IMG/VR virus record: IMGVR_UViG_3300028797_000106
From: a virus
Taxonomy: Duplodnaviria; Heunggongvirae; Uroviricota; Caudoviricetes
DNA: 64,000 bases
Strand: one strand, 5' to 3'
The stretch's first letter is position 1. Each line of letters opens with the position of its first letter. The position numbers and the translations under genes were made by a program. Shown here in pieces: positions 1,281-28,265 of this stretch. The notes below the pieces were generated by a model that had not been told where the DNA came from, did no database searches, and saw nothing but the letters and a program-made list of their open reading frames with translations.

Positions 1281-1310
1281 TGTTAAATTTATAACATAAT
1301 CAAAACGGAG
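1281..1310 (+). promoter_or_regulatory. Conserved upstream motif TTAAATTTataaCATAATCAAA; first copy
   Basis: Same 22-nt box as at 4937-4966, upstream of the nicotinamidase gene. Confidence 0.4.
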
Positions 1311-1317
1311 ATTCCCA

Positions 1318-2360: not shown

Positions 2361-2859
2361 GACTGTCACAATAACAGATGCAGTTGGCGACTTGCTTGCG
2401 CTTGCGTCTGCATTGGGATGCGTGAAAGGACGCCTTCATAAATCTGGGCATGCGGAATATCGTGAAGAGAAATTCTACATAAATTTCGGCCAAGGCTTGA
2501 ATGGACAGAACTCCGATGATTATCTTTTCTCCATTGAGTTCAATGCGACGAACGCCGGAGTCACGGTTCCTAAGCGCATATCGGTGCCAGAAAAGGTTGC
2601 CATCCGTGAAAACGGAAAGGTGTGGGTTTATCATAAGTCTATCATGACCGATGGCTTGACAACCAAATACTTGAAGTTTTTCTGGGACAGGAAACTTAAA
2701 CATATCAGCAAGCTTGCCGACAAGGCACTTAAGCAACATGCTGAATTTCAGAAGGCCGCAAAGATTACTGCATTGAAACTTGAACAGTTCAGCGGCATAG
2801 AAACTATTAACTTAGAACAACAACCACCTGAGAAACCCCATCGTTTTTGGATGGAATAA
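2344..2859 (+). CDS. hypothetical protein
   Basis: 171 aa ORF in the co-directional gene array. Confidence 0.5.
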   Translation: MLGLFKTVTITDAVGDLLALASALGCVKGRLHKSGHAEYREEKFYINFGQGLNGQNSDDYLFSIEFNATNAGVTVPKRISVPEKVAIRENGKVWVYHKSIMTDGLTTKYLKFFWDRKLKHISKLADKALKQHAEFQKAAKITALKLEQFSGIETINLEQQPPEKPHRFWME

Positions 2860-2870
2860 GGAAAACAACA

Positions 2871-3320
2871 ATGTTTGAAAACTTCTTCAAGAAAATCACT
2901 TTCGCAGATGTTACGAAAGAACTCTATGACATTGTCAGAGAATATGACATGATAGAGACAGAAAACAAGGACAAGGACAGCGGTTCTTGTTCGCATGCTT
3001 ACACGCTCAACCCAGGTCAGACATACTGGTTCATCAACATCTTCACTAAGAAAAGTGAGATTGGTGAAGTGCCGTTTAAGATTGCTTACATTGAAGAAGG
3101 TTCTTGGCAGATCCCGAAGGATCAGCTGGAATTCGTTGCTCCCAGTGATAAGATTCACATGATGAGCTCGGACAACTTGCTTTCAACAATGCCTTTAAGA
3201 AAATGGAATAACATGAAGGAACATCTTCGTGCCTTGCTTTTGAGGGCAAGAAAAGAATACACATCCATCACAAAGTGTGTCAAAACAAATAACATTATTG
3301 CAGAAGCTGCAAGAGGGTAA
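2871..3320 (+). CDS. hypothetical protein
   Basis: ATG at 2871 preceded by aaggaaaacaaca; longer 2847 start would overlap the previous gene. Confidence 0.5.
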   Translation: MFENFFKKITFADVTKELYDIVREYDMIETENKDKDSGSCSHAYTLNPGQTYWFINIFTKKSEIGEVPFKIAYIEEGSWQIPKDQLEFVAPSDKIHMMSSDNLLSTMPLRKWNNMKEHLRALLLRARKEYTSITKCVKTNNIIAEAARG

Positions 3321-3322
3321 CT

Positions 3323-3775
3323 ATGTTCAAATCAGAAATCACTTTTGAAGAATTATGCTATGAAGTAGCAGGGCTCATTAAAGAATACGGTCTTGAACCT
3401 TTGAAAGGAGGCGACTGGGACAGGAATTCATCCCGTGTGTATTACGCTTTCCCAGAAAGACCGGGTATCTCGTCTGGCGCCCTCATTACTGTTGCTTACA
3501 GTGAAATTCTTAATGCAAGAGTGCCGACTTACATTGCTCTTGCCACAAGTTGTTCTTTTGGTTTGAACAACGGAAAGTTCAGCATTAACATTAACAACAG
3601 TAGAAGCTGGGACGGCGTCTACAATGAAAAAATGGATCTTAAGAAATGGAAAGAGAACAAGACCTGTCTTGTTTCCATTCTTGACAAAGTGAAAGACGAA
3701 ACCCAAAACGTTCAGAAGAAACTCAAGCAGTTCTCTCTAAAATTTGACCAAATGTTGGCAGATGTCAACGCATAA
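3323..3775 (+). CDS. hypothetical protein
   Basis: 150 aa ORF tightly packed after the previous gene. Confidence 0.5.
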   Translation: MFKSEITFEELCYEVAGLIKEYGLEPLKGGDWDRNSSRVYYAFPERPGISSGALITVAYSEILNARVPTYIALATSCSFGLNNGKFSININNSRSWDGVYNEKMDLKKWKENKTCLVSILDKVKDETQNVQKKLKQFSLKFDQMLADVNA

Positions 3776-3789
3776 CCCAAGAGGATATT

Positions 3790-4566
3790 ATGAATAAACT
3801 TACACAAGATTGCATCAATTGGGTCCGCGATTACTTCAAGGATCACAACCAAACAAAGGCTATCGTTGGTATCAGCGGTGGTAAGGATTCGTCGGTAGTT
3901 GCCGCTGTCTGCGTTGCTGCCCTCGGAAAGGAAAATGTTTTTGGCTTGCTTATGCCGAACGGTATTCAGGCTGACATCGCGGATTCGTACCGTGTTGTTG
4001 ACCACCTTGGCATTCAGCATGACCTCGTTGACATTGAAGTGCCGTTCAAGGAAATCGGTGCAGCAATTCCTGGGTTCTTTGACTCGGATGCAGCTCGCAC
4101 AAATCTCCCTGCTCGCTTGCGTATGTGCTGCTTGTATGCTTACGGACAAGCACACGGCATGATGGTTGCCAACACTTGTAATGCTTCGGAAGACGCCGTC
4201 GGATATGCTACCCTTTACGGTGACAGCGCCGGCAGCTTTGCGCCTGTCTCGAAGTTGACCACAGAAGAAATTATTGAAATGGGCAAGGACTTAGGTCTTC
4301 CACATGACCTTGTTGAAAAGACTCCGATTGACGGACTTCAGCCTCTCAGCGATGAACAGAAACTTGGCTTCACATATCACGAAGTCAATGAGCTCATTCG
4401 TAAGGGCGTCCGCGGCGAGAACTTTGACAAGATTCAGGCGATGTATCTCGCTAACAAGTTCAAGACTGACATCATTCAGATCCCTGCTTTTGACCCAGGT
4501 CTGCCTAATACACTAACCGGCGAGCATGCCTTCAGCGATGATGAAGACATTGCCTGCACAGACTAA
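3790..4566 (+). CDS. nadE: NH3-dependent NAD+ synthetase
   Basis: PP-loop ATP pyrophosphatase motif GISGGKDSSVVAAV; length and layout typical of NadE. Confidence 0.8.
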   Translation: MNKLTQDCINWVRDYFKDHNQTKAIVGISGGKDSSVVAAVCVAALGKENVFGLLMPNGIQADIADSYRVVDHLGIQHDLVDIEVPFKEIGAAIPGFFDSDAARTNLPARLRMCCLYAYGQAHGMMVANTCNASEDAVGYATLYGDSAGSFAPVSKLTTEEIIEMGKDLGLPHDLVEKTPIDGLQPLSDEQKLGFTYHEVNELIRKGVRGENFDKIQAMYLANKFKTDIIQIPAFDPGLPNTLTGEHAFSDDEDIACTD

Positions 4567-4577
4567 TAGGTAATGAC

Positions 4578-4886
4578 ATGAATACAAAGTTCAGGCAACT
4601 AACAGACGCAGTAAACGATCTTCGCTTGGGAGACATCGGATATGGCGACGAAAAGACATGGGACGAATCCCCATGTGGTCGCTACTTAAAGATGCAACTT
4701 CAGTTAGACATTGATGAAGGGAACTACCAAGAATACTCTATCATACGTCTTGACGATGTGATAGACGGTGCGGAGTTCAACTTTGAGATAACTGAAGGTC
4801 GTGAACTCACACAAGAGGAACGCGATGTATGGTATGACTGGGCTTTGTCTTGTCCTGTCAAAGCCTTCAAGCTGGAAAGAGAATAG
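4578..4886 (+). CDS. hypothetical protein
   Basis: 102 aa ORF. Confidence 0.45.
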   Translation: MNTKFRQLTDAVNDLRLGDIGYGDEKTWDESPCGRYLKMQLQLDIDEGNYQEYSIIRLDDVIDGAEFNFEITEGRELTQEERDVWYDWALSCPVKAFKLERE

Positions 4887-4936
4887 AAACCTCACGGATT
4901 TTATTTTGTTTTCAACTATTGCCAGTTCGGCAAAAA

Positions 4937-4966
4937 GTTATTAAATTTTAATCATAATCAAACAAC
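4937..4966 (+). promoter_or_regulatory. Conserved upstream motif TTAAATTTtaatCATAATCAAA; second copy of the box at 1281-1310
   Basis: Near-identical 22-nt sequence sits 30-60 nt upstream of the start codons at 1318 and 4999. Confidence 0.4.
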
Positions 4967-4998
4967 ACAACAGCCAAATAACCGAATAAGGAAAAACT

Positions 4999-6207
4999 AT
5001 GGCCTCTTCTGACAACAAATATACTTTTGACGGCGATGAACTTGGTATCGTCCCGTTGTCCACTCAAATTTCTGAACAGGTGCCGGCAGGTACTTACACC
5101 TTCTCATTCAACCAGATGACTGGCTTGCATGTGAACAAGTGTGAAGATGTTCCTGCTGTGCCACACAAGGTCTACGGCGACCAGACAAAGCGTGTAGAGA
5201 AGGTCTACCGCGCATTTGACCGCCGCACCCGCAACACAGGCGTCCTTCTTTCCGGTGAACCCGGTATGGGTAAGTCGCTGTTCATCCGTATGATGGCGGC
5301 GGAAGCTAAGAAGCGCGGACTTCCGGTCTTTGTGGTTTCGCAGAATTGCCCAGGCCTCATCGCTTGGCTGAAGCGTTGTCATACTGACTGTTTGGTCATT
5401 ATGGATGAATTTGAAAAGATCTTCGCTTGCGGAAACGACAATGATGGCGAAGGTCCAGCCCAGGAGCAGTTCCTTTCCTTGCTTGACGGTATGTGTGATA
5501 GCAAGAAACTGTTCGTGGCTGCTATTAACGATACATGGAAGTTGAACAAGTTCATGCTGAACCGCCCAGGTCGCTTCTTGTATCACTATCGCTTCGGTTG
5601 CTTGAACCAGCACGACATCGTCGCCTACTTGGAAGACGAACTTGCTGACAAGACCAAGCTTGACTACTTGTCTTCAATTCTTTTGGGACATCAGGTCAAC
5701 TACGACTCTCTGGCATGCATTGTGTCGGAAGTCAATGCTGGTGAAGATGTTGATGAAACTATGCAGGACCTCAACCTTGACGGTCACGAACAGAAGTCGT
5801 ATGACGCTTCCGTCACCATTGACGGCTTGCTTTACACAGGCAAGTTTGACATCGGCTTTGGCGCTGCAATTCAGTGCGTCACTCTCCAGTGGCGCCCGGG
5901 ATTCGGCGAAGCAGTTGGCGACAACTATGCTCGCTCTGTGGAAGTTCGCTTCAAGACCGAGGACATTCTCAGGGCATCTACTGACAAGTACTGCTCTTCT
6001 ATGAAGGTCCTCAAGGATAAGTTGGAACTTTCTCGCCACGGTAAGCCGAAGCAGGTTCGCCTGCACATGAGCTCTGACTCTGATAAGTTCGCTCCAGTTA
6101 ACATCTGGTCGGACCTCAAGTTGTCGGAACACTATGAATACTCTGGCAGCGGCTACTACGCCAAGGGCAAGGGTGTCGCTGCTGAAACCGACTACTGCGA
6201 CCTTTAA
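4999..6207 (+). CDS. AAA+ ATPase
   Basis: Walker A GEPGMGKS and Walker B CLVIMDEFEK; 402 aa. Confidence 0.7.
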   Translation: MASSDNKYTFDGDELGIVPLSTQISEQVPAGTYTFSFNQMTGLHVNKCEDVPAVPHKVYGDQTKRVEKVYRAFDRRTRNTGVLLSGEPGMGKSLFIRMMAAEAKKRGLPVFVVSQNCPGLIAWLKRCHTDCLVIMDEFEKIFACGNDNDGEGPAQEQFLSLLDGMCDSKKLFVAAINDTWKLNKFMLNRPGRFLYHYRFGCLNQHDIVAYLEDELADKTKLDYLSSILLGHQVNYDSLACIVSEVNAGEDVDETMQDLNLDGHEQKSYDASVTIDGLLYTGKFDIGFGAAIQCVTLQWRPGFGEAVGDNYARSVEVRFKTEDILRASTDKYCSSMKVLKDKLELSRHGKPKQVRLHMSSDSDKFAPVNIWSDLKLSEHYEYSGSGYYAKGKGVAAETDYCDL

Positions 6208-6477
6208 TCTAAGGATTTTCAAAGGGAAGGAAAAATATATAAAAAACAACGAAAAGATGGATACTGCAAACAACCACTTCTTAATGACACATGGGTACAT
6301 ACCATCGCCGCAAGGCCGCTCGACCGTATATTGCGTGAAATACGGCAAGCCGTTTGCCGGGTAGATACGGCTTCCATCTTGTGTTGCTTTTTGATTTTAC
6401 ATATTCTCTAAAGATTCATACAGCAAGGTATGATCTTTCGCACAAAGGAAAAAACGAATCTTGTAAGGAGAAACATT

Positions 6478-8019
6478 ATGATTAACTTCTATGATGAAGT
6501 GAAGAAGGTGCTCGACGATCGTCGTGCAATGACAGAAAACGGTGCCGTTGGTTATGCAACCACAGGAAAGGCACTTTTGGACATGAATTTCAAGGTCCCA
6601 TCTTACCGCAACGCATCGGAAGATGAAATTGTTTCAGATTTTATTAAGGCTTACGCCGAAGATCCTACATTAGCCATCAAGTGGATGTTCTATGTAGGCG
6701 ACATCCGTCAGGGATTGGGTGAACGCCGTTTGTTCCGTATCTTGATGAAGCATGTGATGGCTCAGAACCCTGGGTTCATCCGTTTCGTCGGCGAATATAA
6801 CCGCTTTGACTCACTCTTTGAACTCTTCGGAACAGAAGCTGAAGAAGAAATGGTCAACTTTGTGTTGAAGCAGTTGACTAAGGACATGATTGCGACACAC
6901 GAAAACAAGCCATGTTCTTTGTTGGCTAAGTGGATGCCAAGTATCAACACATCTTCAAAGAAGACCCGTGAATTGGCAAAGAAGTTCATCAAGGAAATGA
7001 ACATCTCAGACGGCGAATACCGTAAGATGTTGTCCAAGCTCCGTGCTAACATCGATGTCACAGAACGCAAGTTGTGTGCCGGTGAATGGGACAAGGTGAA
7101 CTACAACACAGTGCCTTCTAAGGCTAACCTCAAGTATAACAATGCCTTCTTGGCACACGATGAAGCACGCCGTCGTGAATTCTTGGGTAAGTTGGCAAAG
7201 GGCGACAAGGATGTAAAGATTAACGCAGGTGCGGTCTTCCCTCACGACATCGTGGTCAAGTACCGTGAACCTGGTTGGTCTAGCCACTTGAAGGACTTTG
7301 ACGGAACACTTGAAGCAATGTGGAAGGCTTTGCCTAACACACTTGGTGATAAGCCAATGATTGTGGTCCGTGACGGTTCTGGCTCCATGACTGTGACAGT
7401 GCAGCGTGGTGGACAAGTTCAGGCTTTGGATGTGGCTACTGCCCTCGCTATCTACTGTGCAGAAAGACTGCCAGCAGGTTTCAAGGACAAGTTCATCACA
7501 TTCTCTGAACAGCCAAAGTTGGTTAACCTTGCCAATGTGAACAGCCTGCGTGATAAGCTCCGTGTGGCATACAACGAAGCAGAATGTGCCAACACAAACA
7601 TTGAAGCGGTGTTTGATTTGATTCTTAAGACTGCAGTGCAGGGCGGCTTGAAGCAGAATGATATTCCGGACATCCTGATTATCTCCGACATGGAATTTGA
7701 CGGATGTGCTTGTGATAACTCACATGCTCGCGGCTCTTGGGGTCGTGGCCTCAGCCCAACTTTGTTCCAAGTAATTGGACAGAAGTATGCAGCTCATGGC
7801 TACAAGTTGCCTAAGATGATCTTCTGGAATGTGAACTCCAGAACAAACACAATTCCTGTAAAGGAAAATGACAAGGGCGTTGTCCTGATGTCAGGTTTCT
7901 CTCAGAATACTGTGAAGATGGCGATGAGCAACAAGCTTGACCCATATCAGGCTCTGAAGGAAACACTCAACGTCAACCGTTATGCCTTCGTTGAAGACGT
8001 AATGATGGCGGGTGAATAA
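6478..8019 (+). CDS. von Willebrand factor A (vWA/MIDAS) domain protein, Ro60/DUF2828-like
   Basis: MIDAS-like DGSGSMT motif in the C-terminal half. ATG at 6478 with aaggagaaacatt RBS. Lies directly downstream of the AAA+ ATPase. Confidence 0.6.
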   Translation: MINFYDEVKKVLDDRRAMTENGAVGYATTGKALLDMNFKVPSYRNASEDEIVSDFIKAYAEDPTLAIKWMFYVGDIRQGLGERRLFRILMKHVMAQNPGFIRFVGEYNRFDSLFELFGTEAEEEMVNFVLKQLTKDMIATHENKPCSLLAKWMPSINTSSKKTRELAKKFIKEMNISDGEYRKMLSKLRANIDVTERKLCAGEWDKVNYNTVPSKANLKYNNAFLAHDEARRREFLGKLAKGDKDVKINAGAVFPHDIVVKYREPGWSSHLKDFDGTLEAMWKALPNTLGDKPMIVVRDGSGSMTVTVQRGGQVQALDVATALAIYCAERLPAGFKDKFITFSEQPKLVNLANVNSLRDKLRVAYNEAECANTNIEAVFDLILKTAVQGGLKQNDIPDILIISDMEFDGCACDNSHARGSWGRGLSPTLFQVIGQKYAAHGYKLPKMIFWNVNSRTNTIPVKENDKGVVLMSGFSQNTVKMAMSNKLDPYQALKETLNVNRYAFVEDVMMAGE

Positions 8020-8026
8020 ATAAACA

Positions 8027-8062
8027 AACCGGGAGGGATGCTTCCCCTCCCGATTTACTTTT
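8027..8062 (+). terminator. Rho-independent terminator
   Basis: cgggaggg-loop-ccctcccg hairpin followed by atttactttttt. Confidence 0.6.
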
Positions 8063-8129
8063 TTACCGAATGGGAAAGAGGTTTCGTGATGAAGCGTTTG
8101 TGTTACGTTTGAACACAAAGGATGTAAAA

Positions 8130-8639
8130 ATGCAAAGACATGATGAAGATGAACAGCTATCATTTAGCGACATTGTAGACGATTTTCAGAAGGGCGCTGA
8201 ATTGCTTTTCGGCAAGAACCGCAAGGAACTTGCTAAGACAGCACAGGCAGCAGTTGAACTCTGCCAGTCCGCTTTGGACGCAGACGCCAATATCCCGTTG
8301 AATGTGTTCTTGAATGCTGATGGCTCTAAGACTTGGGAACTCGCTATCCCGGGTAAGACAAAGGAAAATGTGACTATCTCGCAGGGTACGAAAAACGGCC
8401 AGCGTGTTATCACAGTGGAAGTCAAGGCAACTGAATTGACAGATGAACAGAAGAAGGAACTTGAAGGACGCACACTGATCCTTCAGAAGATTAAGGGTAT
8501 GAACGGAATCAAGTTCTCCGCCTTCGTTCCGGCCATCTTTGATTTGGACAACCTGAAGGCTAAGGTTGAAAACGGTCTTTTGACTGTCACCGTGCCGAAG
8601 GTGCCTGAAGAACAGCCTCGCACATTCACGGTTGAATAA
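8130..8639 (+). CDS. Small heat shock protein (Hsp20/alpha-crystallin family)
   Basis: C-terminal AKVENGLLTVTVPK, classic Hsp20 signature. ATG at 8130 lies downstream of the terminator. Confidence 0.7.
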   Translation: MQRHDEDEQLSFSDIVDDFQKGAELLFGKNRKELAKTAQAAVELCQSALDADANIPLNVFLNADGSKTWELAIPGKTKENVTISQGTKNGQRVITVEVKATELTDEQKKELEGRTLILQKIKGMNGIKFSAFVPAIFDLDNLKAKVENGLLTVTVPKVPEEQPRTFTVE

Positions 8640-9129: not shown

Positions 9130-9717
9130 ATGGCAGACGAGAAGAAAAAATTCAAAAAGTGGTATGATGATGCGGTCATGAACATGGCTGCACAGATGGC
9201 TCAGTACTGCAAGAAGAGTACTGACAACATGCTCAAGCGTCAAGCCGAGGAAAGAGAATCAGAATGGGAAGCTGCTGAACGAGACCGCCGAATAATGGAT
9301 AAGACAAAGCAGTTCTTTGATGAGAAGTGCTTCCCAGGTCTACAGAATGAAGGCTATAAGCTTGCCGTTGAACCAGCATCCGCAATTCAGCATGTACCGC
9401 CTAACATCCGTATCATCTGTAATTTTGGTGCTAAGACATGGAAAGATGGACGAGCACGCATTGACGAAAACAACGGTGAGTTTATCATTCAAGAATATGT
9501 AAATATGCCGTATGCCTTTACGGCACGAGGCGTTGTAGGTCAATCTTGGAATACGGTTAAGACGATTAAGTTCGTCAAGCCAACGGCATCGGGTTCATGG
9601 GATGATTTCAACAAAGCCATGAATGAATGCAATGAGTTTACAAAACAACGAATTAAGGAAGCTAAGATTGCTGCCTTGAAGGCTGAAAGAGAAAAGGGTT
9701 TATCAGATGAAGTATGA
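9130..9717 (+). CDS. hypothetical protein
   Basis: 195 aa ORF. Confidence 0.5.
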   Translation: MADEKKKFKKWYDDAVMNMAAQMAQYCKKSTDNMLKRQAEERESEWEAAERDRRIMDKTKQFFDEKCFPGLQNEGYKLAVEPASAIQHVPPNIRIICNFGAKTWKDGRARIDENNGEFIIQEYVNMPYAFTARGVVGQSWNTVKTIKFVKPTASGSWDDFNKAMNECNEFTKQRIKEAKIAALKAEREKGLSDEV

Positions 9718-10387
9718 TGTGATTGTTTCTTTGACAACATGGAAGGGCAGGATAAATGATCCTCGCTTACCTAAGGTTATTTTCAGACTGTTGCAGCAAG
9801 AAACCAAATTCAAGTATAAGGTCGTTCTTGTTCTTAGCCGCGAGGAGTTCGGCGACAATTATGAAGTGCCTGAACGAATTGCTTTGATGACTGAAGATGA
9901 ACGCTTTGAAATTCTTTGGACTGACAAGAATACAAAAGCATTGAAGAAACTTGACCCGACGATGGAGAAATATCCTGACACACCGATCATAACAACAGAC
10001 GATGACATATTGTTGAAGAAGCACGCTGTAGATATGATGATACAGGCCCACCAAATGCATCCTGAGGCCATCTTGGGGACTGTTTGTGGCGCATTTTATC
10101 CACCTATCTGCAGGGTTGGAAATCTTCGTTTATTTCCTCCTCACTCCCTTGCGGATTTACCAACTGAATACTTCTCAACCTATTTTCAGAACTTACATGA
10201 TGATGAATGGAATGGTATCCGCGCGATGGTCAAAGGCACTAAGATGCTGAAGGTTGCCGATAAGCTCATTGAAAACATTTCATATTACGGACAAGACAAT
10301 TCTTTCCGCAAAGAATACAACAAGTTCAGGTTCAAACCTGCATACGATAAGTTTAAGAAAGAACATCCAGAATATAACCTAAAGTAG
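9707..10387 (+). CDS. Putative glycosyltransferase, GT25-like (LPS glycosyltransferase family)
   Basis: N-terminal VIVSLTTWKGRI resembles the GT25 VISLxSAxERRxHI motif. Candidate DxD at ITTDDDILL. Paralog of 13211-13903 and 14811-15644. Confidence 0.45.
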   Translation: MKYDVIVSLTTWKGRINDPRLPKVIFRLLQQETKFKYKVVLVLSREEFGDNYEVPERIALMTEDERFEILWTDKNTKALKKLDPTMEKYPDTPIITTDDDILLKKHAVDMMIQAHQMHPEAILGTVCGAFYPPICRVGNLRLFPPHSLADLPTEYFSTYFQNLHDDEWNGIRAMVKGTKMLKVADKLIENISYYGQDNSFRKEYNKFRFKPAYDKFKKEHPEYNLK

Positions 10388-12982: not shown

Positions 12983-13174
12983 ATGAAAAATCTGGCAATG
13001 CGAACAGAACCGCATTCGCTGGGTAAAGCACTTGGCAAGATCCGAAAGAAATACGCTGAGGTGCGAGCATTGCATAAATGCCAACAGCAACTGAATGCGG
13101 ACGCCGCTGCCATATCCAAATGGTTTGCGAACATGACAGCGGCTGAAATTGAACGCGTCTACGAATTGGATTAG
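12983..13174 (+). CDS. hypothetical protein
   Basis: 63 aa ORF followed by a terminator. Confidence 0.4.
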   Translation: MKNLAMRTEPHSLGKALGKIRKKYAEVRALHKCQQQLNADAAAISKWFANMTAAEIERVYELD

Positions 13175-13177
13175 ATT

Positions 13178-13207
13178 GGAGCTGCCTTAACCGGCAGCTC
13201 TTTTTAT
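13178..13207. terminator. Bidirectional intrinsic terminator between convergent genes
   Basis: gagctgcc-ttaacc-ggcagctc hairpin with T tract; flanked by convergent CDS. Confidence 0.6.
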
Positions 13208-13210
13208 GTC

Positions 13211-13903
13211 TTATAGCGGTTCGCAGATTTTCTTTAATCGCGGAATGATTGTATCTGAATAACAGTGCCTACGGTTCATGCTTGACGAAATACCGTCGCG
13301 TGTTTCTTTTGCGATTTGATAGTACCTAAATGGACAGTTATCATTCTGAAGAACCTTTATGCCAAATTTGGCTGCAAGGACACCATACAAAGCATCATCG
13401 TGATTTGTGTTTAAGACTTCATCAAGCTCTATTGCTTTTAGACCTGCATCTTTAAATGCGTTCGGCGGATAGATTGTTCCCCAACCGCCGGCACCCCAAG
13501 AAATGTTATATCCGTGATGCACTTCATTAACGAAAATACAGTCTTGGTTTCTTAACCAGCGGGTATATAAAATTTCAGCGAAATTGCGAATGTAGACTAT
13601 ACCGTCATCTGCGCTGATGATTGGTACATTTGGATATTTTGCCATTGTAGGAATGATCTTTTTGAAGACCTTGTAATTTCGTTTTGTCCAGATTACCTCA
13701 ATGACATCATATTTAATTTGTTCACGAAGTTTATCAGGAAGATCCGCTTCTTTATTTGGGAACTCATTTTCTGAAAGAACAAGGACAATATGAAAGCCAG
13801 GATTGTGCTTGATGATACTGAAGATTGTCGCATACACGGAGTTTATTCTAGCTTTCCAAGATGTAAGAGAAATGATTGCTTTTTCGCCGTTATACTGTTT
13901 CAT
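13211..13903 (-). CDS. Putative glycosyltransferase, GT25-like
   Basis: AIISLTSWKARI N-terminal motif and IISADDG; clear paralog of 9707-10387 (shared VLVLS.EEF, PTM.KYP, PII..DD blocks). Confidence 0.5.
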   Translation of the reverse strand: MKQYNGEKAIISLTSWKARINSVYATIFSIIKHNPGFHIVLVLSENEFPNKEADLPDKLREQIKYDVIEVIWTKRNYKVFKKIIPTMAKYPNVPIISADDGIVYIRNFAEILYTRWLRNQDCIFVNEVHHGYNISWGAGGWGTIYPPNAFKDAGLKAIELDEVLNTNHDDALYGVLAAKFGIKVLQNDNCPFRYYQIAKETRDGISSSMNRRHCYSDTIIPRLKKICEPL

Positions 13904-13923
13904 GTGGTATTTATAAATACAAC

Positions 13924-14814
13924 ATGAGTAAGATTAATAGTGAACCTATAGATATTGTTGTGCCGTGGGTAAATCCTAATGATGAACAATGGTTTAGAAT
14001 ACTTAGCCATTTTAGAAAAACAACATCCGGTGAAAAAGATGATATTCGTTTTAGGGATTTAGATGTTTTTAGATATTGGTTTAGGGGTATAGATAATTAT
14101 ATGCCTTGGGTTAGGTATGTATTTTTGATTTTAGCATCGCCATCACAAATACCTGCCTGGTTGAATACTGAACATTCAAAATTAAAAATTATATACCATA
14201 AAGATTTTATTCCTGCATCGGAATTACCGACTTTTAATAGCTCTGTAATAAATTGTTATGTTCCTTACATTGAAGAATTAAGTGATAATTATATTCTTTT
14301 TAATGATGACATGTTTATTATGAAGCCACAGTTGGAAGAAAATTGGTTTAAGAATGATTTGCCTGTTTATTTTTTAATGCATGAACGGTATCAACGAAAT
14401 GGAAAGTGGTCTGAAAACATTGTAAACTCAAAGACGCTTGCGTCAGCATATACAGGAATTACATGTGACTCAAATCCAGAACATGGACCTATAGCTAATA
14501 AGAAAATGATGAATATGTTTTTCTTTGAACGTTATAAAGCAAACTTTCAAAATGCATTGGGCAATTCTAGGTTTAGAACTGCAAAAAACGTCACGGATTG
14601 GATTTATTTTTTCTTTTGTGTTCCGTTAAATAAATTTTATGAAAATAAGACTTCCAGGGTTTTATATTGGTCAAATGAAAAAGAACCAAAACAAATAAAA
14701 GATGTAGTGTGTTTTAATGATTCTTCACTTATTAAGAATTTTGATGCATTTAAAGTAATGGTTAGAAATTTTCTAAATAATAGATTTCCAAATAAATGTA
14801 GGTTTGAAAAATGA
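13924..14814 (+). CDS. Stealth-family protein (capsule-type hexose-1-phosphate transferase homolog)
   Basis: CR1-like IDIVVPWVNPND. CR2-like RFRDLDVFRYWFRGI...MPWVRYVFLILASPSQIPAWL. NDDMFIM block. ATG at 13924 avoids overlap with the divergent gene. Confidence 0.7.
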   Translation: MSKINSEPIDIVVPWVNPNDEQWFRILSHFRKTTSGEKDDIRFRDLDVFRYWFRGIDNYMPWVRYVFLILASPSQIPAWLNTEHSKLKIIYHKDFIPASELPTFNSSVINCYVPYIEELSDNYILFNDDMFIMKPQLEENWFKNDLPVYFLMHERYQRNGKWSENIVNSKTLASAYTGITCDSNPEHGPIANKKMMNMFFFERYKANFQNALGNSRFRTAKNVTDWIYFFFCVPLNKFYENKTSRVLYWSNEKEPKQIKDVVCFNDSSLIKNFDAFKVMVRNFLNNRFPNKCRFEK

Positions 14815-15644
14815 AAATTGTAGTAACGATGACATCCTATCCAAAAAGAATAAAAGAAGTCGGAAAGTTCATATATCGTTTTTTTAAGACACAGACTGAA
14901 CGTCCTGATTATTTTTATTTATGGTTATCCTCTGTAAATTTTCCAAATAAAGAGAAAGATTTGCCACAAGATTTATTATATGTTTGCGATGCATTCGGCG
15001 TAATTATATCATGGGTTGATTATGATGATGGCTGCACTAAACGATGGAATGTATATCCTAAACATTATGAAGACTGTGTGGTTGCTGTTGATGAAGATAA
15101 TGAATATGATTATCATTTAATTGAAACTATGCGTAAATTTAATTATAGTCCAAAAACGATTTATGCAGTTTGGGAAAGTTTAACAAATTATTTAGTACTA
15201 AATGAAGGCATAGATTTTAGATATATACATTATAAGAAATTAAAACTTGCCGATCATTCGTTAAGAATGAAAATATCTGGTAATAGTGTTATACCACCAA
15301 GAACATTTCCGCTTGAAGCATTAAATCCTGAATACTTACCATTACGATTAAAGTATTGTAAGAAATGCGATGAAAGCTGGCTTCAGCCATTTTATAGATG
15401 TGCAGGAATAGAGTCTTCTGTGCTTCATTTGAAAAAATATGCATGTGATGATAAAATGAATGCAACTGGAATAAATGCACAAGGACGGCGCATCAATGGT
15501 GTTTGGTGGAAGAATTTACAGATGTATTTGGTTTTAAGATTATTTCCTAAAATGATGGAACGATGGAAAGAATTATTTCCATCATACAATGATGATAAAT
15601 TTAAAGATATGTCAATAGATGAATTAGCAAAGTTGCTGGGATAA
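14811..15644 (+). CDS. Putative glycosyltransferase, GT25-like
   Basis: IVVTMTSYPKRI N-terminal motif, third member of the local paralog family; VAVDEDNEY acidic motif. Confidence 0.45.
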   Translation: MKIVVTMTSYPKRIKEVGKFIYRFFKTQTERPDYFYLWLSSVNFPNKEKDLPQDLLYVCDAFGVIISWVDYDDGCTKRWNVYPKHYEDCVVAVDEDNEYDYHLIETMRKFNYSPKTIYAVWESLTNYLVLNEGIDFRYIHYKKLKLADHSLRMKISGNSVIPPRTFPLEALNPEYLPLRLKYCKKCDESWLQPFYRCAGIESSVLHLKKYACDDKMNATGINAQGRRINGVWWKNLQMYLVLRLFPKMMERWKELFPSYNDDKFKDMSIDELAKLLG

Positions 15645-15648
15645 AAAT

Positions 15649-16491
15649 ATGGATTTTCGTAATTATCAAGATTTTAATTATATGAATGCATTGTGTTTTC
15701 ATTCTATGAATAGAATACCCAATGACATTGATTTAATTGTGTGTATTCCGCGTAGCGGTTTAATTTTTGGCACTTTGATTGGTGAATATAAATCATTGCC
15801 AACTATATCTTTATTTGAGTTTTTATCTGGTGTTAATACATTCAAAATACGAGGTGCGTCTCGTTCGCCTTTATTTGAAAAACAGCCTAAACATATTTTA
15901 TTGTTTGATGATGCAATGGGATTGGGTGAAAGCATGCAAACAGCTAAAACAAAAATTTTAGAAAAGTTTCCAGATCTAAAAATAACTACTTGTGTGATGT
16001 TTGTTGAGCCTTATTCAGTTAATAAAGTAGATATTGCATTTAAAGTTTTTAAAGATCAGCTGCTTCCGTGGAATATCATGAAGCGCGGCATAGGTTGCGG
16101 CTGTGTAGACATGGATGGTTTTTTATGTGTAGATCCAACGTCAAATGATACAAAAACCGAAGAAGCATATTTGAATTTCATAAAGAATGCAAAACAAAAA
16201 TATGTTCCTGACCATAAAATCAAATACATAGTTTCAGGACGTTTGGAAAAATACAGAAAAGAGACAGAGGAATGGCTTAAATGCCATAACATACAATATG
16301 AAAACCTTATATTGTGTCCAGCAAAAAATAATGAAGAACGCCGTAAAATGACGCCTGAGAAATATAAAGCTGACTTTTATAAGAAATCTAAATGTTTAAT
16401 TTTTATTGAAAGCAATTATGGTGAAGCAAAGGCTATTGCTAAAATGACAAATATGCCTGTTTACTGTACCGATGTATGTGAACTTTTATGA
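15649..16491 (+). CDS. hypothetical protein with PRTase-like N-terminus and HAD-like DxDG motif
   Basis: DLIVCIPRSGLIFGTLIG resembles a type I PRTase loop; VDMDGFLCVD resembles HAD motif I; function unknown. Confidence 0.4.
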   Translation: MDFRNYQDFNYMNALCFHSMNRIPNDIDLIVCIPRSGLIFGTLIGEYKSLPTISLFEFLSGVNTFKIRGASRSPLFEKQPKHILLFDDAMGLGESMQTAKTKILEKFPDLKITTCVMFVEPYSVNKVDIAFKVFKDQLLPWNIMKRGIGCGCVDMDGFLCVDPTSNDTKTEEAYLNFIKNAKQKYVPDHKIKYIVSGRLEKYRKETEEWLKCHNIQYENLILCPAKNNEERRKMTPEKYKADFYKKSKCLIFIESNYGEAKAIAKMTNMPVYCTDVCELL

Positions 16492-16502
16492 AGAACATAA
16501 AA

Positions 16503-16535
16503 AGACCGGTGCTTAGCCGGTCTTTTATTTTATTA
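16503..16535. terminator. Bidirectional intrinsic terminator
   Basis: agaccgg-tgcttag-ccggtct hairpin flanked by A tract and T tract between convergent genes. Confidence 0.6.
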
Positions 16536-16898
16536 TAAGTGATTGTGTGCCCTGTGTTCTGCGATGTCGTGAATTCTTTTGCCGATTTCTTTGACCTTCT
16601 CAACCGGCACATCTTTATCCAGTTCTTCTGTATAGTTAGCACCTGAATTCATTCCCTTGATGAAAACGACGATCTTGCCTTTGTCATAATCATACTCGAT
16701 ATTAGCGAGTGTCTGATTATGGTTCATCAGCCTTACCCAATATGCAGAGCCAGGCATCTTGCTGAAAACGATTTCATCGCCGCTGACAAAGCCACAGCAA
16801 TTTGAAAGATCTTCAATGAATTCATCTAAGCCGGTTGCTGACCATTCACATATCAGTCCGGCTTTGCCTAATTCTTTAAATGCTTCGTGTAATTCCAT
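16533..16898 (-). CDS. hypothetical protein (shares N-terminal L.KAGLI.E motif family)
   Basis: 121 aa; N-terminus MELHEAFKELGKAGLICE. Confidence 0.5.
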   Translation of the reverse strand: MELHEAFKELGKAGLICEWSATGLDEFIEDLSNCCGFVSGDEIVFSKMPGSAYWVRLMNHNQTLANIEYDYDKGKIVVFIKGMNSGANYTEELDKDVPVEKVKEIGKRIHDIAEHRAHNHL

Positions 16899-17069
16899 TA
16901 CTTACTCCGTAAAGCATTGGCGAACTTATGTAATGAAACGCAAAAGTCGCCGTGCTTCAAATTTTTGCATTCCTTAACTTCTATCAGTTGTTCAATGTTT
17001 TGAACTTCTGGATAGTCTTTCTTAAGTACTGCAACTAGCTGTTCTTTAATTATTTCTTTGTAGTTCATG
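16896..17069 (-). CDS. hypothetical small protein (57 aa)
   Basis: Minus-strand ORF MNYKEIIKEQLVAVLKKDYPEVQNIEQLIEVKECKNLKHGDFCVSLHKFANALRSK; stop overlaps the start of 16533-16898 (TAATG). Confidence 0.3.
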
Positions 17070-17114
17070 TTCTATTTATTCTTGTTTTTCTTCCATTCAT
17101 TATATTCTTGAAAA

Positions 17115-18023
17115 TCAAACAAATTCAGGTATGTAGGTTTTATACCAATAGAAGACAATTTCATATTTCTTTGCCGCGCCTTGTGCAACCAAAGTAAAGC
17201 TATTTTCACCATCCAAATTATTGTCTTTAAGTAATAGGTTTGCGTCAGATTCACGAGCATCATTTCCTTGCTTAAGCGTGATTACGGAACCTTGTTTTGC
17301 TGAAATGTTCTGTGCTGGAATTTCATTATTTAGAATTGTCACAGTTTCAGGAAATGTCATTTTAATCTGATAAAATACATCAGCTGAAAGATTATAGTCA
17401 ATGTCAAATCTTACGCCATCAATCGTTGTATGTTTCTTACCAGCTTTTGCTGAGAAACACATATAGTGTGCATTGAAATCGGTCCAAATTTGTAATATGA
17501 AATCAGGTGCAGCAATGTGAAGCTCAGATTCTTGCATGATATCACGACTGATTTGAATACCGCCGCTTATTGAAAAATACTGTTCGTATTTTGACCCTTT
17601 GACTTTTATACCATTTCCAAAAGCATCACCGCCGATGTATAAATGGTCAAGCGCATCATTTGGATATTCCTGTAGAAGTAATACTTGCAATACTTCTGAG
17701 TTTTCATCATTAACCAAAAATATAGCGTGCTCATCAAATGAATATGCATTAGGAAATACACGAATTATGTCATTTGCTATAACAGCGGCCTGTTGTGCAG
17801 GTATTGTTTCTAAAGTGCTTAAACGAGATTGAATGTTTGTAAGTGAACTCTCAAGCGCAGATAGACGAGGTTCACATTCACATTCTTTAATGATTGTTGT
17901 GGTACTTCCTGTGTTAGATGATGAAGATGAGCTGCTTGAACTCTGACTAGGCATTGAGGTAGAAGGTGTGTATGAATATGTATATGTTGACCCTGATTTA
18001 GGTCTTGCATTTAGACGACGCAT
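17115..18023 (-). CDS. hypothetical protein with Ser/Thr-rich N-terminal region
   Basis: 302 aa; poly-Ser tract SSSSSSSSSNTGSTTT followed by a short coiled segment and a beta-rich C-terminus. Confidence 0.5.
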   Translation of the reverse strand: MRRLNARPKSGSTYTYSYTPSTSMPSQSSSSSSSSSNTGSTTTIIKECECEPRLSALESSLTNIQSRLSTLETIPAQQAAVIANDIIRVFPNAYSFDEHAIFLVNDENSEVLQVLLLQEYPNDALDHLYIGGDAFGNGIKVKGSKYEQYFSISGGIQISRDIMQESELHIAAPDFILQIWTDFNAHYMCFSAKAGKKHTTIDGVRFDIDYNLSADVFYQIKMTFPETVTILNNEIPAQNISAKQGSVITLKQGNDARESDANLLLKDNNLDGENSFTLVAQGAAKKYEIVFYWYKTYIPEFV

Positions 18024-18043
18024 AATTTACCTCCCCTTTTTAT

Positions 18044-18781
18044 TTACGGATTGAACTGATACCATGTTTCAAAGTAGTCAGGTTCATTTCTGGTGTATTG
18101 CATATACACGCCCAAGATTGACCTGCCCATCAGCTGAGAATGATGCAACATATACCAAATCACTTCCGCAACTTCATACGGGCTGATTGGACTGTCGCCG
18201 CCTTCTTCCAATACTTCAGCGATTTGCGGTTCAAATTCAGCGACATGCTTTTCTGCGTATGAACGGCCAGCGTCATCGCTGTCATAGCAGTTATCGTAAA
18301 TCTGAGCGAGCTTCTTTGTTACGATTTCACGGTAGTTGTCGGTGCTTTCGTTGACTGATTCGCTCTGAATTGCCTTGACCTTTTTCATGTAAGCATGCAA
18401 CTGAGTTAAGCTAAATGCTATCTGAACAAAGCCGCCGTTGTTATTTCTGATAATGCGCCAAGGATAGCTGTTTCCTCTCCAATAGAAAGCACCGTGTCTA
18501 CGGAACTGGACTTCCCATGTAGCATTTTCCATCACAATTTCAAATTGCTGTGTGACGCCCTTGTCATCAGGGTCTACTTCATAGTAGTTTTTTACAGGTC
18601 TAACTTTCTCAATCTCTTCAACGATTTCTTCAACGATTGCTTCGTTGCTATTTGCAGCAATTCGTGCAAGAGCATCTTCAGTTGTTTCCTCAGCAATAAG
18701 ACCTGCTTTATTCAAAATCTGTTGTGCCTCAGAAAGCTCCATGTAAACCTCCAGAATAATTTTTAGTTGACCTGCCGTCAA
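18044..18781 (-). CDS. hypothetical protein (N-terminal LNKAGLIAEE motif family)
   Basis: 245 aa. Confidence 0.5.
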   Translation of the reverse strand: MTAGQLKIILEVYMELSEAQQILNKAGLIAEETTEDALARIAANSNEAIVEEIVEEIEKVRPVKNYYEVDPDDKGVTQQFEIVMENATWEVQFRRHGAFYWRGNSYPWRIIRNNNGGFVQIAFSLTQLHAYMKKVKAIQSESVNESTDNYREIVTKKLAQIYDNCYDSDDAGRSYAEKHVAEFEPQIAEVLEEGGDSPISPYEVAEVIWYMLHHSQLMGRSILGVYMQYTRNEPDYFETWYQFNP

Positions 18782-19204: not shown

Positions 19205-19424
19205 ATTCGTATTGAAATGCAATGATTGGGAAGATCATAACAACCCAGTTTACGTCAAACATGTTGATTGGGAAAAAGACTGTTTATTTGGCTATGACGT
19301 AACTGAGGACATAACAAAAGCACAAAGATTTTCACAGAAAATGGCTTATAGGATGTCCGATGAAATTTACGATTCTTACTGTGATGATTTTGAGGTTATA
19401 AATACTTCGTATGAAGCAGATTAA
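19191..19424 (+). CDS. hypothetical protein
   Basis: Internal ATG minimising overlap with the previous gene. Confidence 0.4.
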   Translation: MMRNRFVLKCNDWEDHNNPVYVKHVDWEKDCLFGYDVTEDITKAQRFSQKMAYRMSDEIYDSYCDDFEVINTSYEAD

Positions 19425-20541
19425 CCGTTTTTGGAATGTTGCGGTACCGGGTATCGCCATTCCTACATGTATCGGTTCCGTCTATTGCTGGTCTCAGTTC
19501 TCAGCTGCACTTGCTGCAACATTCGGAATCTCTATTTTCGCAACCAACATCGGTTTCACCTTAATCATTTTCTTCCTTGGTGTCTTTGCGGCACTGTTTG
19601 GAAGGACGATTGAGGTCAACCCTAAGATTGGTGCCATTCTTTCAACCATCATTTTTGTTTCAGGCTTCTTGCTGTTGGGCCTTTCGGTCTATACAGGCTG
19701 CCTTCCGCTCTTTTACGCAGCGACTGCGACGATTGGCGCGGGCACAGGAATAGGATATGTCACACCGATTAAGACCTTGATGGCGTATTTTGCAGATCAT
19801 AAGGGTCTCGCAAGCGGTTTGGCTATCACAGGGTTCGGGCTGGCTAAGTTTATTGCCTCTCCGGCTATCGCTTTTTTGATTGCTGCTGTTCCTTTACATC
19901 AGGTTTTCATAATTCTTGGGCTCGTTTATGCAGTCATCATGACCATTTCAACGGTCTTGCTAAAGAAATATGATTTTGGACCTGAAATCCAGCACCCATT
20001 CAAGTATGGCGACATATTGAAGAGCAAAGAATGGTGGGCAATTTGGTTTATGTTCATGGTGAACATATCTTGTGGCCTATCTATCATCGCTCAGGAAGCA
20101 GCATTGCTTGGAATTATGGGCATTCCGTTCATCGCAGGCATTCTAGCGATGACAGCACTTGCCAATTCAGGTGGTCGCCTTGGTTTTTCAACATTGTCAG
20201 ATAAGATTGGCAGAAAGGCATCATACCATTTCGTTTGTTCATTTGGAATGCTCGGTGCTTTATTCTGTATCACGGGCAACCCTATCATGGCAGTAATCGG
20301 TATCTTCCTTTGTGAAGCAGCATACGGCGGAAATTTCTCTTGTTTGCCATCCTTGCTCGCAAAACGCTTTGGAATTTACAATTCTAGCAAGGTTCATGCT
20401 ATGACATTGACTGGCTGGAGCATTGGAGGCATCTTCGGACCGCTTCTAGCTGCGACATTTGTCGGCACCAACCTTTATATTGTGCTTGCTATCCTTTATT
20501 TCATTGCATTTACGGTAATGGAAATTTTCGTTCGGAAATAA
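19411..20541 (+). CDS. Major facilitator superfamily (MFS) transporter
   Basis: 376 aa, about 12 hydrophobic segments; MFS motif A-like GRLGFSTLSDKIGRK. Confidence 0.65.
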   Translation: MKQINRFWNVAVPGIAIPTCIGSVYCWSQFSAALAATFGISIFATNIGFTLIIFFLGVFAALFGRTIEVNPKIGAILSTIIFVSGFLLLGLSVYTGCLPLFYAATATIGAGTGIGYVTPIKTLMAYFADHKGLASGLAITGFGLAKFIASPAIAFLIAAVPLHQVFIILGLVYAVIMTISTVLLKKYDFGPEIQHPFKYGDILKSKEWWAIWFMFMVNISCGLSIIAQEAALLGIMGIPFIAGILAMTALANSGGRLGFSTLSDKIGRKASYHFVCSFGMLGALFCITGNPIMAVIGIFLCEAAYGGNFSCLPSLLAKRFGIYNSSKVHAMTLTGWSIGGIFGPLLAATFVGTNLYIVLAILYFIAFTVMEIFVRK

Positions 20542-24673: not shown

Positions 24674-25495
24674 ATGCTCACATTGATATGTCTTACAAAG
24701 TCATATCGGATAGAGGATTTTGCAGCCTGGTTTGATTACCATTCATCACTGGGCTGCAATTTGTGTATATTAGATAATGACTCAACGGTAGATATTCATA
24801 CATATGTTTCAGAACACATGCGTGAAGGAATTTACTACCGACACATTTCAGGTTTCGCCGACCAGTGGAACCTATTCCGAGATATTCTTAACAGTAGGAC
24901 TGAAATTCAGTTCAAGGACGATGAACTTGTAATGTTCCTTGATGACGACGAATTCTTGTGGTTTGACGATAGCAAGTATTCGTCCTTAGAATGCGCATTA
25001 AGGGCTCAGTTCAGACAGTTGAGTTGTCTATTATTGCCTGAAATTTTATTGTCCACGCATCATTTAACGGAGGGTAGAAGCCAGATCCTACCCCTTGCCT
25101 CGTATTACCGAAGAAATGATCTGGCAACACAAGGTAAAGCGTGCATCTTGTGGGATCATTGGTCAAAGTATTCATATAACCTGAAAGATTTTGAAATCGG
25201 ACATGTGCCTTGGATAAACAAAATCAGGATGTCAGATGTAGTTGGGTCAGATGTTTCAAAATCCACTTATGGGTTGTGTAAATATGATGCTCCTGTAAGA
25301 CTGTATCATTATCACATCAAGTCTGCGGAGGATTGGAAAATCAAGATTGAGCGCGGAAGTGCAGCAACAGCGGCAGAACCCGGAAAAAATGGATCATATG
25401 ATTCGGACATCTTAAAGAATAAGAAGTATGGAGGGTATGATATCCCGGATTTTACTATGAAGAGAAAGATGGAAACTTTGTTAGGAAAATCCTGA
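24674..25495 (+). CDS. Putative GT-A-fold glycosyltransferase
   Basis: Acidic DxD-like motifs LDNDSTV and FLDDDEFLWFDD; 273 aa. Confidence 0.35.
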   Translation: MLTLICLTKSYRIEDFAAWFDYHSSLGCNLCILDNDSTVDIHTYVSEHMREGIYYRHISGFADQWNLFRDILNSRTEIQFKDDELVMFLDDDEFLWFDDSKYSSLECALRAQFRQLSCLLLPEILLSTHHLTEGRSQILPLASYYRRNDLATQGKACILWDHWSKYSYNLKDFEIGHVPWINKIRMSDVVGSDVSKSTYGLCKYDAPVRLYHYHIKSAEDWKIKIERGSAATAAEPGKNGSYDSDILKNKKYGGYDIPDFTMKRKMETLLGKS

Positions 25496-28142: not shown

Positions 28143-28265
28143 GTATGCCGCAGAGTAATGAAGCTTTATTGGAATTAATGAACACTATATGGAAAGAACT
28201 TGAAAAACAACAAGACGCAAAGGAAAACCTCTGCGCCACAAAAACAACAGAAGAGGACAACTACG

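Follow-up and report, generated by a model that had tools for sequence, protein, structure and literature searches.

Virus-encoded glycan machinery is known from the DNA glucosylation of T-even phages, the virions of mycobacteriophages and the fibrils of giant viruses; to our knowledge, neither the synthesis of phosphodiester-linked (capsule- or teichoic-acid-like) glycans nor the use of phosphoribosyl pyrophosphate (PRPP) as a sugar donor has been demonstrated for any phage. Here we describe an AT-rich, virus-encoded glycan cassette with putative enzymes for both of these unusual chemistries, a hexose-1-phosphate transferase of the Stealth family and a PRPP-dependent ribosyl transferase. The cassette lies in a 64-kb stretch (the window, by which we mean the whole of the DNA analysed) of the ~264-kb genome of IMG/VR virus record IMGVR_UViG_3300028797_000106 (Caudoviricetes), which looks like a lytic, T4-like jumbo phage.

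Each part of the cassette can be set beside a described system. The hydroxymethylcytosine (hmC) DNA of T-even phages and others is a substrate of strain-variable glycosylation. Phage DNA poly-glycosylation also has precedent: RB69 and DLP3 carry poly-arabinosyl-5-hydroxycytosine (5hoC), and RL38JI carries hexosyl chains together with a phage UDP-galactopyranose (UDP-Galp) mutase (PMC13326640). Stealth enzymes form phosphodiesters, with a UDP-sugar as donor of hexose(NAc)-1-phosphate and a hydroxyl group as acceptor (PMC5974469). In known ribofuranosyltransferases, a phosphoribosyltransferase (PRTase)-like domain moves ribose-5-phosphate from PRPP to a sugar and a HAD domain strips the 5-phosphate (PMC10299916, PMC12096443, PMC11294581); the prototype has an N-terminal phosphatase and a C-terminal gPRT with helical-bundle insertions, in a protein of ~590 amino acids (aa) or as domains of a larger polymerase (PMC11294581, PMC10299916).

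The cassette stands out from the window by its base composition. Mean G+C of the window is 42%, and in 1-kb steps only 14-16 kb is down at 0.30; in 300-nucleotide (nt) windows, G+C is 0.27-0.34 across ~13.8-16.5 kb and back up to 0.43 at 16.5 kb. The block 13924-16491 has a G+C of 0.306, the minimum of the window (z = -6.6 against all other 2.6-kb windows), and G+C at third codon positions (GC3) is 0.22, 0.21 and 0.24 in its three genes (Stealth, GTc and ORF5, respectively), as against 0.40-0.54 in fifteen backbone genes. A preliminary description of this DNA, made from the sequence letters, had reported a sharp drop between about 13.9 and 16.5 kb and a different codon usage, and both were borne out by these measurements. 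It had also counted a minus-strand glycosyltransferase (GT) copy as part of the island; this gene (GTb, 13211-13903) is indeed on the minus strand, but its intermediate GC3 of 0.37 leaves it outside the AT-rich core. It had further set a bidirectional terminator at the convergence point; the terminator-like hairpin that scores on both strands lies at 16500-16526, where ORF5 converges with ORF 16533-16898, and the hairpin adjoining GTb (13178-13201) scores on the plus strand only. The Stealth and GT genes had been named, whereas the fourth gene (15649-16491), arguably the most informative part of the cassette, had been missed.

The AT-rich core is one tightly coupled three-gene operon, in which the Stealth stop and the GTc start overlap (ATGA) and a spacer of 4 nt separates the GTc stop from the ORF5 start. 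GTb is divergent from it, with 20 bases between the GTb and Stealth genes. The features of the cassette and its surroundings are as follows:

13016..13212, unstranded: left homology arm and recombination junction of the exchanged module, covering the 3′ part of ORF 12983-13174 and hairpin 13178-13201

13211..13903, minus strand: GTb, a 230-aa GT-A glycosyltransferase with a predicted KfiA-like fold, divergent from the operon (GC3 0.37)

13901..13926, unstranded: candidate shared control element, a 26-bp near-perfect palindrome that spans both divergent start codons

13924..14814, plus strand: predicted Stealth-family hexose-1-phosphate transferase, 296 aa from ATG, first gene of the operon (Pfam CR2, PDB homologs)

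14811..15644, plus strand: GTc, a 277-aa GT paralog of GTa and GTb (TMTSYPKRI, DED motif)

15649..16491, plus strand: ORF5, a 280-aa fusion of a type I PRTase (N-terminal) and a HAD phosphatase (C-terminal)

16500..16526, unstranded: bidirectional intrinsic-terminator-like hairpin where ORF5 (plus) meets ORF 16533-16898 (minus)

16533..18781, minus strand: module-borne genes of 121, 302 and 245 aa

9707..10387, plus strand: GTa, the 226-aa third GT paralog, a backbone gene of normal composition outside the island

Sequence comparison supports the product of the first operon gene as a true Stealth-family protein, with predicted hexose-1-phosphate transferase activity, in keeping with the family named in the preliminary description. 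That description had read it as containing conserved regions CR1 and CR2; the Pfam Stealth_CR2 model matches at 110.2 bits (gathering cut-off 39.4, E = 7e-32), but CR1 scores slightly below its cut-off (25.6 against 27.2), as does CR4 (24.5 against 27.4), and CR3 gave no match in Pfam. Close homologs of the protein carry a CR1 annotation. Its homologs in the PDB include Mycobacterium tuberculosis CpsY (8j2n, 3.8e-19), and the human and insect GlcNAc-1-phosphotransferases are both among them (GNPTAB, 7s6n, 1.5e-18). Residues N127-D128-D129, R42, R44 and H187, invariant or nearly so in 43 homologs, are all kept. The phage protein thus shares both family and NDD motif with the Stealth enzymes CsaB and CsxA of Neisseria meningitidis, CpsY and GNPTAB. 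Unlike them, it is short (296 aa), lacks a CR3 match, is encoded by a phage without capsule export genes, and is partnered with GT-A and PRTase-HAD enzymes, being fused to a GT in some viral contigs.

The fourth gene, ORF5, combines a PRTase fold and a HAD fold, with the PRPP-binding acidic DD motif of the former and the DxDG motif of the latter both intact. We predict that it is a PRPP-dependent ribose-5-phosphate transferase and 5-phosphatase that adds ribofuranose, an activity suggested by the position of its bacterial homologs inside polysaccharide loci. A Tenacibaculum homolog (38% identical) lies between a Wzy polymerase and a GT2 gene in a classical polysaccharide locus, and another homolog was found within a Bacteroidales-like capsule (CPS) locus. 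The PRTase-HAD family occupies at least 549 loci among bacterial species representatives; among 94 genes within two positions on either side of it in 24 diverse bacteria, 19 were GT2 and 14 were GT1/GT4, and Wzx flippases, Wzt/ABC exporters, Wzy and WecG were also found. Neither Stealth nor the KfiA-like GT family adjoined a bacterial PRTase-HAD gene in any of 80 loci, and the combination seen here is therefore a viral assembly and not a captured host locus.

On paper, ORF5 has the same pair of activities as the described enzymes, PRP-gPRT of Klebsiella and T. composti (PDB 7SHG), CrpP-CriT of Hib Bcs3 (PDB 8A0C) and Campylobacter jejuni Cj1432, and like theirs its family occurs in polysaccharide loci. 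It differs from them in its reversed domain order, in being about half the size (280 aa) with no helical-bundle insertions in its predicted model, and in keeping the classical vicinal DD motif and a classical PRTase core; its fold is nearer to nucleobase PRTases and to the phosphatase of T4 polynucleotide kinase (PNK). At the sequence level, ORF5 matched neither 7SHG nor Bcs3. It seems to represent an uncharacterised architecture of its own for the dual-domain ribofuranosyltransferase job, similar in its working and not a member of the same family.

The three GT-like ORFs (GTa, 9707-10387; GTb, 13211-13903 on the minus strand; GTc, 14811-15644) had been described as paralogs, and they are: they share 22-31% identity and one family HMM matches all of them at E < 1e-58. 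The N-terminal motif SLT(T/S)WK(G/A)RI that was said to unite them is literal in only two copies, the third (GTc) having TMTSYPKRI, and the acidic motif is DDD in GTa, DDG in GTb and DED in GTc. Their description as GT25-like was not upheld, with no Pfam GT25 (Glyco_transf_25) signal at E <= 1 and a fold that fits GT45/GT64 best. Judged from the predicted structure model, which best matches KfiA and PmHS2 (GT45) and EXTL2/EXT2 (GT64), the paralogs are GT-A enzymes with a fold closest to KfiA/GT45. This likeness to the GlcNAc-transferase domain of KfiA and PmHS2 and to EXTL2/EXT is one of modelled fold; unlike in KfiA and PmHS2, DDG (GTb) and DED (GTc) replace DDD, and the family profile matches KfiA in the PDB at a non-significant E = 0.067. 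Giant-virus glycosyltransferases are the best viral structural matches of GTb. The T-even beta-glucosyl-HMC alpha-glucosyltransferase is also among the structural matches of GTb, so that extension of a DNA glycan is within the reach of a GT-A enzyme.

The GT family has no Pfam model, and its members lie mostly on large viral contigs. GTa has a GC3 of 0.46 and is conserved at 75-88% aa identity in three relatives (L001, L005 and L117), in the same place after TROVE/HSP20; it is a conserved backbone gene and a candidate first-step transferase. A further glycosyltransferase at 24674-25495 (Pfam Glyco_tranf_2_4, 273 aa) is conserved at 85% aa identity in L005 and 64% in L117, which gives the lineage, apart from the variable cassette, a core of at least two GTs. 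On another viral contig (L092, 1284-5736), a Cpn60/GroEL-like chaperonin is followed by a gp42-like hydroxymethylase, a 397-aa protein and a GTc-family GT, the last three genes overlapping end to end.

Comparison with relatives revealed a recent lateral exchange of the module between diverged phages. In two of them (L001 and L003), the backbone (TROVE/HSP20, GTa) is ~72% identical to the window, against 99.4-99.9% from 13016 to at least 18575, and L004 also matches the module at 99.4-99.9% from 13016. A 280-kb relative (L005) keeps the flanks (13016-13212 at 84%, 18032-18362 at 87-90%), and the slot between them holds a 51%-identical Stealth gene, a Glyco_transf_7C enzyme, a GT2-like gene and other ORFs. 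Because it is conserved in L005, the segment 18032-18362, the C-terminal part of the 245-aa protein, is taken as the right arm of the module. A mobile-element origin was rejected, there being no integrase or transposase and neither direct nor inverted repeats at the flanks; the exchange looks like homologous recombination through the conserved arms. Immediately right of the variable slot, 19411-20541 encodes an MFS_1 transporter (376 aa, ~8 hydrophobic segments) that is 87% conserved in L005. The minus-strand ORFs at 16533-18781 move with the module and are identical in L001, L003 and L004.

Other glycan genes fill the same slot elsewhere. A deposited 266-kb contig of a metagenome-assembled genome (MAG; JAZLKX010000052.1) has a polysaccharide pyruvyl transferase after GTa, and polysaccharide-type genes adjoin GTa or GTc homologs at L117 10686-12304, L118 6552-11198, L119 1305-5585 and L009 6626-13693; these encode polysaccharide pyruvyl transferases (one of them fused to Fer4/FrhB-like domains), DUF4422, DUF1919, UDP-galactopyranose mutase (GLF) and DUF7487. 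In the unrelated 399-kb contig L009, the order Stealth, GTc-like (74% aa identity), PRTase-HAD (66%) recurs, accompanied by a second PRTase-HAD gene beside another GT, a DUF4422 glycosyltransferase and GLF. Across these cassettes, G+C is below that of the flanks (0.26 against 0.36, 0.31 against 0.42, 0.35 against 0.47, 0.33 against 0.45 and 0.27 against 0.41), and one Stealth-bearing 183-kb phage has 28% G+C throughout, which suggests a low-GC donor pool. The preliminary view of the island as a laterally acquired glycan-modification cassette is thus well supported, by composition, by the identity of 13016-18575 against that of the backbone, and by the other glycan genes in the same slot of relatives.

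Dozens of contigs from uncultured viruses, among them some >200 kb and giant-virus MAGs, carry Stealth genes. Among 69 Stealth loci of IMG/VR viruses, the ones nearest to that of the window have one to four members of the GTa/b/c family alongside. By profile matches, Stealth and a KfiA-like GT are fused in single ~600-aa ORFs in L016 (9980-11788) and in L021 and L022 (9980-11773), and Stealth adjoins a GTa/b/c-family gene in L013-L015 and L018. Because of the ATGA overlap and the 4-nt spacer, the recurrence of the gene order in L009, and these fusions and adjacencies, the cassette genes are predicted, with support from sequence, to act together. In a 258-kb viral contig (L035, 7437-10930), a thymidylate-kinase-like gene is followed by a dihydrofolate reductase (DHFR) gene with an insertion and then by a gene for a 571-aa protein, of which the C-terminal half, after an N-terminal 260 aa, is Stealth.

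The genes around the cassette serve early functions, replication and nucleotide metabolism, and not virion structure, which favours DNA as its target. The replication genes of the window are T4-like (family B DNA polymerase, DnaB, UvsX, gp32 and RNA ligase), and with them are two genes of the hmC pathway:

52350-52913, plus strand: thymidylate-kinase-like nucleotide kinase, overlapping the hydroxymethylase gene

52910-53659, plus strand: gp42-type dCMP hydroxymethylase (T4 gp42 match)

The product of 52910-53659 matches T4 gp42 (PDB 1b49) at E = 5e-41, as against 1e-6 for thymidylate synthases; D169 is retained in its motif QRSCDLVTGFSFD, alongside the change N177D. Under the active-site rule that distinguishes enzymes making 5-hydroxymethyl-dCMP (5-hm-dCMP) from those making 5-hydroxy-dCMP (5-ho-dCMP) (PMC13326640), these two residues predict the former product. 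The phage thus probably has hmC DNA, and because of this hydroxymethylase a role of the cassette in DNA modification gains weight; the preliminary description had named modified DNA as one of three candidate targets, beside host envelope polysaccharide and the virion.

Our favoured but tentative reading is that the cassette extends glycosylated hmC DNA. We infer its donor substrates, order of action and, above all, acceptor as follows. All four soluble, mildly basic enzymes would act in the infected cytoplasm and build a short phosphodiester-containing heteroglycan: Stealth would supply hexose(NAc)-1-phosphate from a UDP-sugar, GTb and GTc would add one or two glycosidically linked sugars, and ORF5 would add ribofuranose by transferring ribose-5-phosphate from PRPP and then dephosphorylating it. 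The acceptor would be the phage's own hmC DNA or the first sugar on it, perhaps placed by GTa, and the slot would provide a strain-variable DNA hypermodification that aids escape from restriction and CRISPR. More doubtful is the fullest form of this proposal, a new DNA hypermodification in which a sugar-1-phosphate is attached by a phosphodiester to hmC or its first sugar, extended by hexose(NAc) and PRPP-derived ribofuranose in a teichoic-acid-like manner, and swapped between jumbo phages, probably of the ruminant gut, as an anti-restriction 'serotype'; such an origin is suggested by contig names such as XIEF21 and by recurring IMG sample numbers. All five cassette-related enzymes have a pI of 8.3-8.9 and no transmembrane (TM) segments, and their neighbours are acidic.

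A DNA target is favoured by the hydroxymethylase and nucleotide kinase in the same genome, by the GTc-family gene in the L092 gene string with a gp42 homolog, by the GLF genes beside GTa- and GTc-family genes in relatives, by the known phage DNA glycan chains and the T-even GT-A enzyme, and by the basic, soluble character of the enzymes. The phage resembles the described DNA glycosylation systems (T4 alpha- and beta-glucosyltransferases, the beta-glucosyl-HMC alpha-glucosyltransferase of T2 and T6, RB69/DLP3 and RL38JI) in its T4-like genome, its gp42-type hydroxymethylase with adjoining kinase, its several GTs, glycan genes that differ between relatives, and GLF in related cassettes. Several observations weigh against such a target. 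The cassette is 39 kb from the hydroxymethylase and not adjacent to it; among 81 gp42 neighbourhoods, only one had a GTc-like gene and none had Stealth or PRTase-HAD. No IMG/VR contig with both Stealth and a gp42 homolog was found among the best 80 loci, a limit at which the result carries no weight either way. A candidate DNA-modification operon in L035, read as kinase, thymidylate synthase (TS) and Stealth, was rejected, its middle gene encoding DHFR in place of a TS homolog. Polysaccharide pyruvyl transferases, typical of surface glycans, occupy the same slot in relatives, and the place of Stealth in a group of smaller phages, straight after the terminase, portal and major head genes, suggests virion proteins as the target. 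We know of no report of hexose-1-phosphate or PRPP-derived ribose on DNA, and a phosphodiester-linked sugar or ribofuranose there would be without precedent. T4 alpha- and beta-glucosyltransferases are GT-B enzymes. The phage DNA arabinosyltransferases modelled in the work on RB69, DLP3 and RL38JI likewise gave GT-B-type matches, and the transferases of these phages adjoin a TS homolog (PMC13326640), unlike the GT-A, Stealth and PRTase-HAD enzymes found here, 39 kb away.

Doubtful, though with evidence of its own, is virion glycosylation, in which Ser/Thr residues of a virion protein, structural or decorating, would bear a phosphoglycan, with effects on adsorption, stability or immune/mucus interactions. 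In at least seven smaller, low-GC viral contigs (L055, L057, L058, L066, L069, L070 and L072), Stealth lies directly downstream of the genes for terminase large subunit, portal, a scaffold-like ORF and major head (for example, L058 5082-10846), and a position after the major head gene is that of virion-glycosylating enzymes in other phages. These capsid-linked proteins are, however, only 26-36% identical to the Stealth protein of the window and belong to other phage groups. Giant-virus enzymes as best viral structural matches of GTb, and pyruvyl transferase and GLF in relatives, as in viral and bacterial surface glycans, would also suit a virion target. The systems that it would most resemble, mycobacteriophage capsid/tail glycosylation and Mimivirus fibril polysaccharides, likewise have virus-encoded GT clusters that differ between lineages, with the pyruvyl transferase of relatives and the Stealth genes beside the major head gene of some small phages as further likenesses; unlike in those systems, no structural gene lies near the cassette, which is within the early/replication region.

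A possible acceptor is the 302-aa product of ORF 17115-18023 (minus strand), which moves with the module. It is acidic; a Ser/Thr-rich tract at its N terminus, SSSSSSSSSNTGSTTT, leads into a coiled-coil-like segment, and the GC3 of the gene, 0.25, is foreign-like and unlike that of its neighbours, separate from the core block. The proposal that it is a glycan acceptor is speculative; the protein has no recognisable structural-protein homology, no tblastn match was found for it among 50,697 phage records, and the minus-strand ORFs 16533-18781 as a group had no informative match in Pfam, PHROGs or the PDB.

Promoter motifs have a bearing on the same question. The palindrome 13901-13926 (CATGTGGTATTTATAAATACAACATG) carries the octamer TATAAATA on each strand, 4 nt from each ATG, and a sequence similar to the palindrome motif, TATAAATAC, lies 7 nt ahead of the MFS gene start (19411). 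We take TATAAATA to be the T4 late-promoter consensus, and its presence ahead of both divergent starts would suit a virion target, but its count is not significant: when examined as an enriched late promoter, four sites were found against 1.8 expected, and 10 of 100 shuffles reached four. Sigma-70-type promoters in the region were not in excess of the shuffled expectation.

Action on the host envelope is unlikely in our estimation, both as chemistry, with sugar-phosphate and ribofuranose added to a capsule, O-antigen or teichoic-acid-like intermediate on a lipid carrier at the cytoplasmic face, and in its supposed effect, receptor masking that would lead to superinfection exclusion or to less progeny loss on debris (the 'conversion or exclusion' of the preliminary description). 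In bacteria, Stealth enzymes, KfiA-like GTs and PRTase-HAD homologs alike act on capsule or O-antigen polymers; the cassettes resemble bacterial polysaccharide loci in being AT-rich, sit in several phage backbones and differ in content between close relatives in a serotype-like way, and the conserved MFS transporter gene adjoins the slot. Against this, none of the phage cassettes examined contains integrase or lysogeny genes, an initiating phosphoglycosyl transferase, Wzx, Wzy or an ABC exporter, and a scan of ORFs in related cassettes and in the window, which covers 64 kb of the ~264-kb genome, showed no lysogeny module, membrane-embedded GtrA/GtrB/Gtr* protein or acyltransferase. The cassette enzymes are without TM segments, unlike the Gtr-type seroconversion cassettes of temperate phages, and classical seroconversion belongs to temperate phages, whereas this phage looks lytic and T4-like (DNA polymerase, UvsX, gp32, gp42). 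The lack of PRTase-HAD beside Stealth or the GT family in the 80 bacterial loci also indicates assembly in phages.

That the genes form no single pathway, with ORF5 serving nucleobase salvage or as a nucleic-acid end phosphatase tied to NAD/RNA-repair modules, the GTs and Stealth acting separately and low GC reflecting gene-family bias, is very improbable given that ORF5 is translationally coupled to GTc, that the Stealth-GTc-ORF5 order is kept in the distant 399-kb contig with a second ORF5 paralog beside another GT, that bacterial ORF5 homologs lie amid glycosyltransferases, flippases and polymerases, and that the module was recently transferred (99.9% identity against 72% for the backbone).

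What the cassette would mean depends in part on its target. If this is DNA, the chemistry of phage anti-restriction modifications is wider than known and new enzymes for DNA labelling come within reach; if it is the virion, a jumbo phage would for the first time be seen to have a capsule-like coat; and if it is the host surface, this is a lytic-phage form of seroconversion. Whatever the target, the locus shows AT-rich glycan cassettes passing as modules between jumbo phages that have diverged, much like serotype loci among bacteria, and the PRTase-HAD family is an uncharacterised candidate route to ribofuranose in polysaccharides. Should the DNA hypermodification reading be true, PRTase-HAD would represent a second class of PRPP-dependent ribofuranosyltransferases, independently organised and found widely in the polysaccharide loci of bacteria.

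The phage itself is distant from cultured and deposited ones. Megablast of 9-19 kb gave no close relatives among cultured phages; Stealth, GTa, GTb and ORF5 had no tblastn match in 50,697 deposited phage genomes, and the DNA polymerase is at most 27% identical to those of deposited phages, namely cyanomyoviruses. No tRNA or tmRNA genes were found in the window by ARAGORN. An NAD-salvage/RNA-repair style set is spread over 152-8639, 28200-29408 and 61724-63178; its members include a cytidylyltransferase with a NUDIX domain (NadR-like), NAD synthase, an AAA ATPase, a TROVE/DUF2828 Ro-like protein, HSP20, RNA ligase and a cytidylyltransferase fused to a tRNA-nucleotidyltransferase-like domain. 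A ribulose-phosphate 3-epimerase at 39977-40699 (E = 1e-24) could feed pentose phosphates to PRPP for nucleotides, NAD or ORF5. Among the replication genes, 48537-49208 encodes a T5orf172/MUG113 (GIY-YIG-related) domain protein that may be homing-endonuclease-like. Nearly all genes of the window are on the plus strand, the exceptions being 13211-13903 and 16533-18781.

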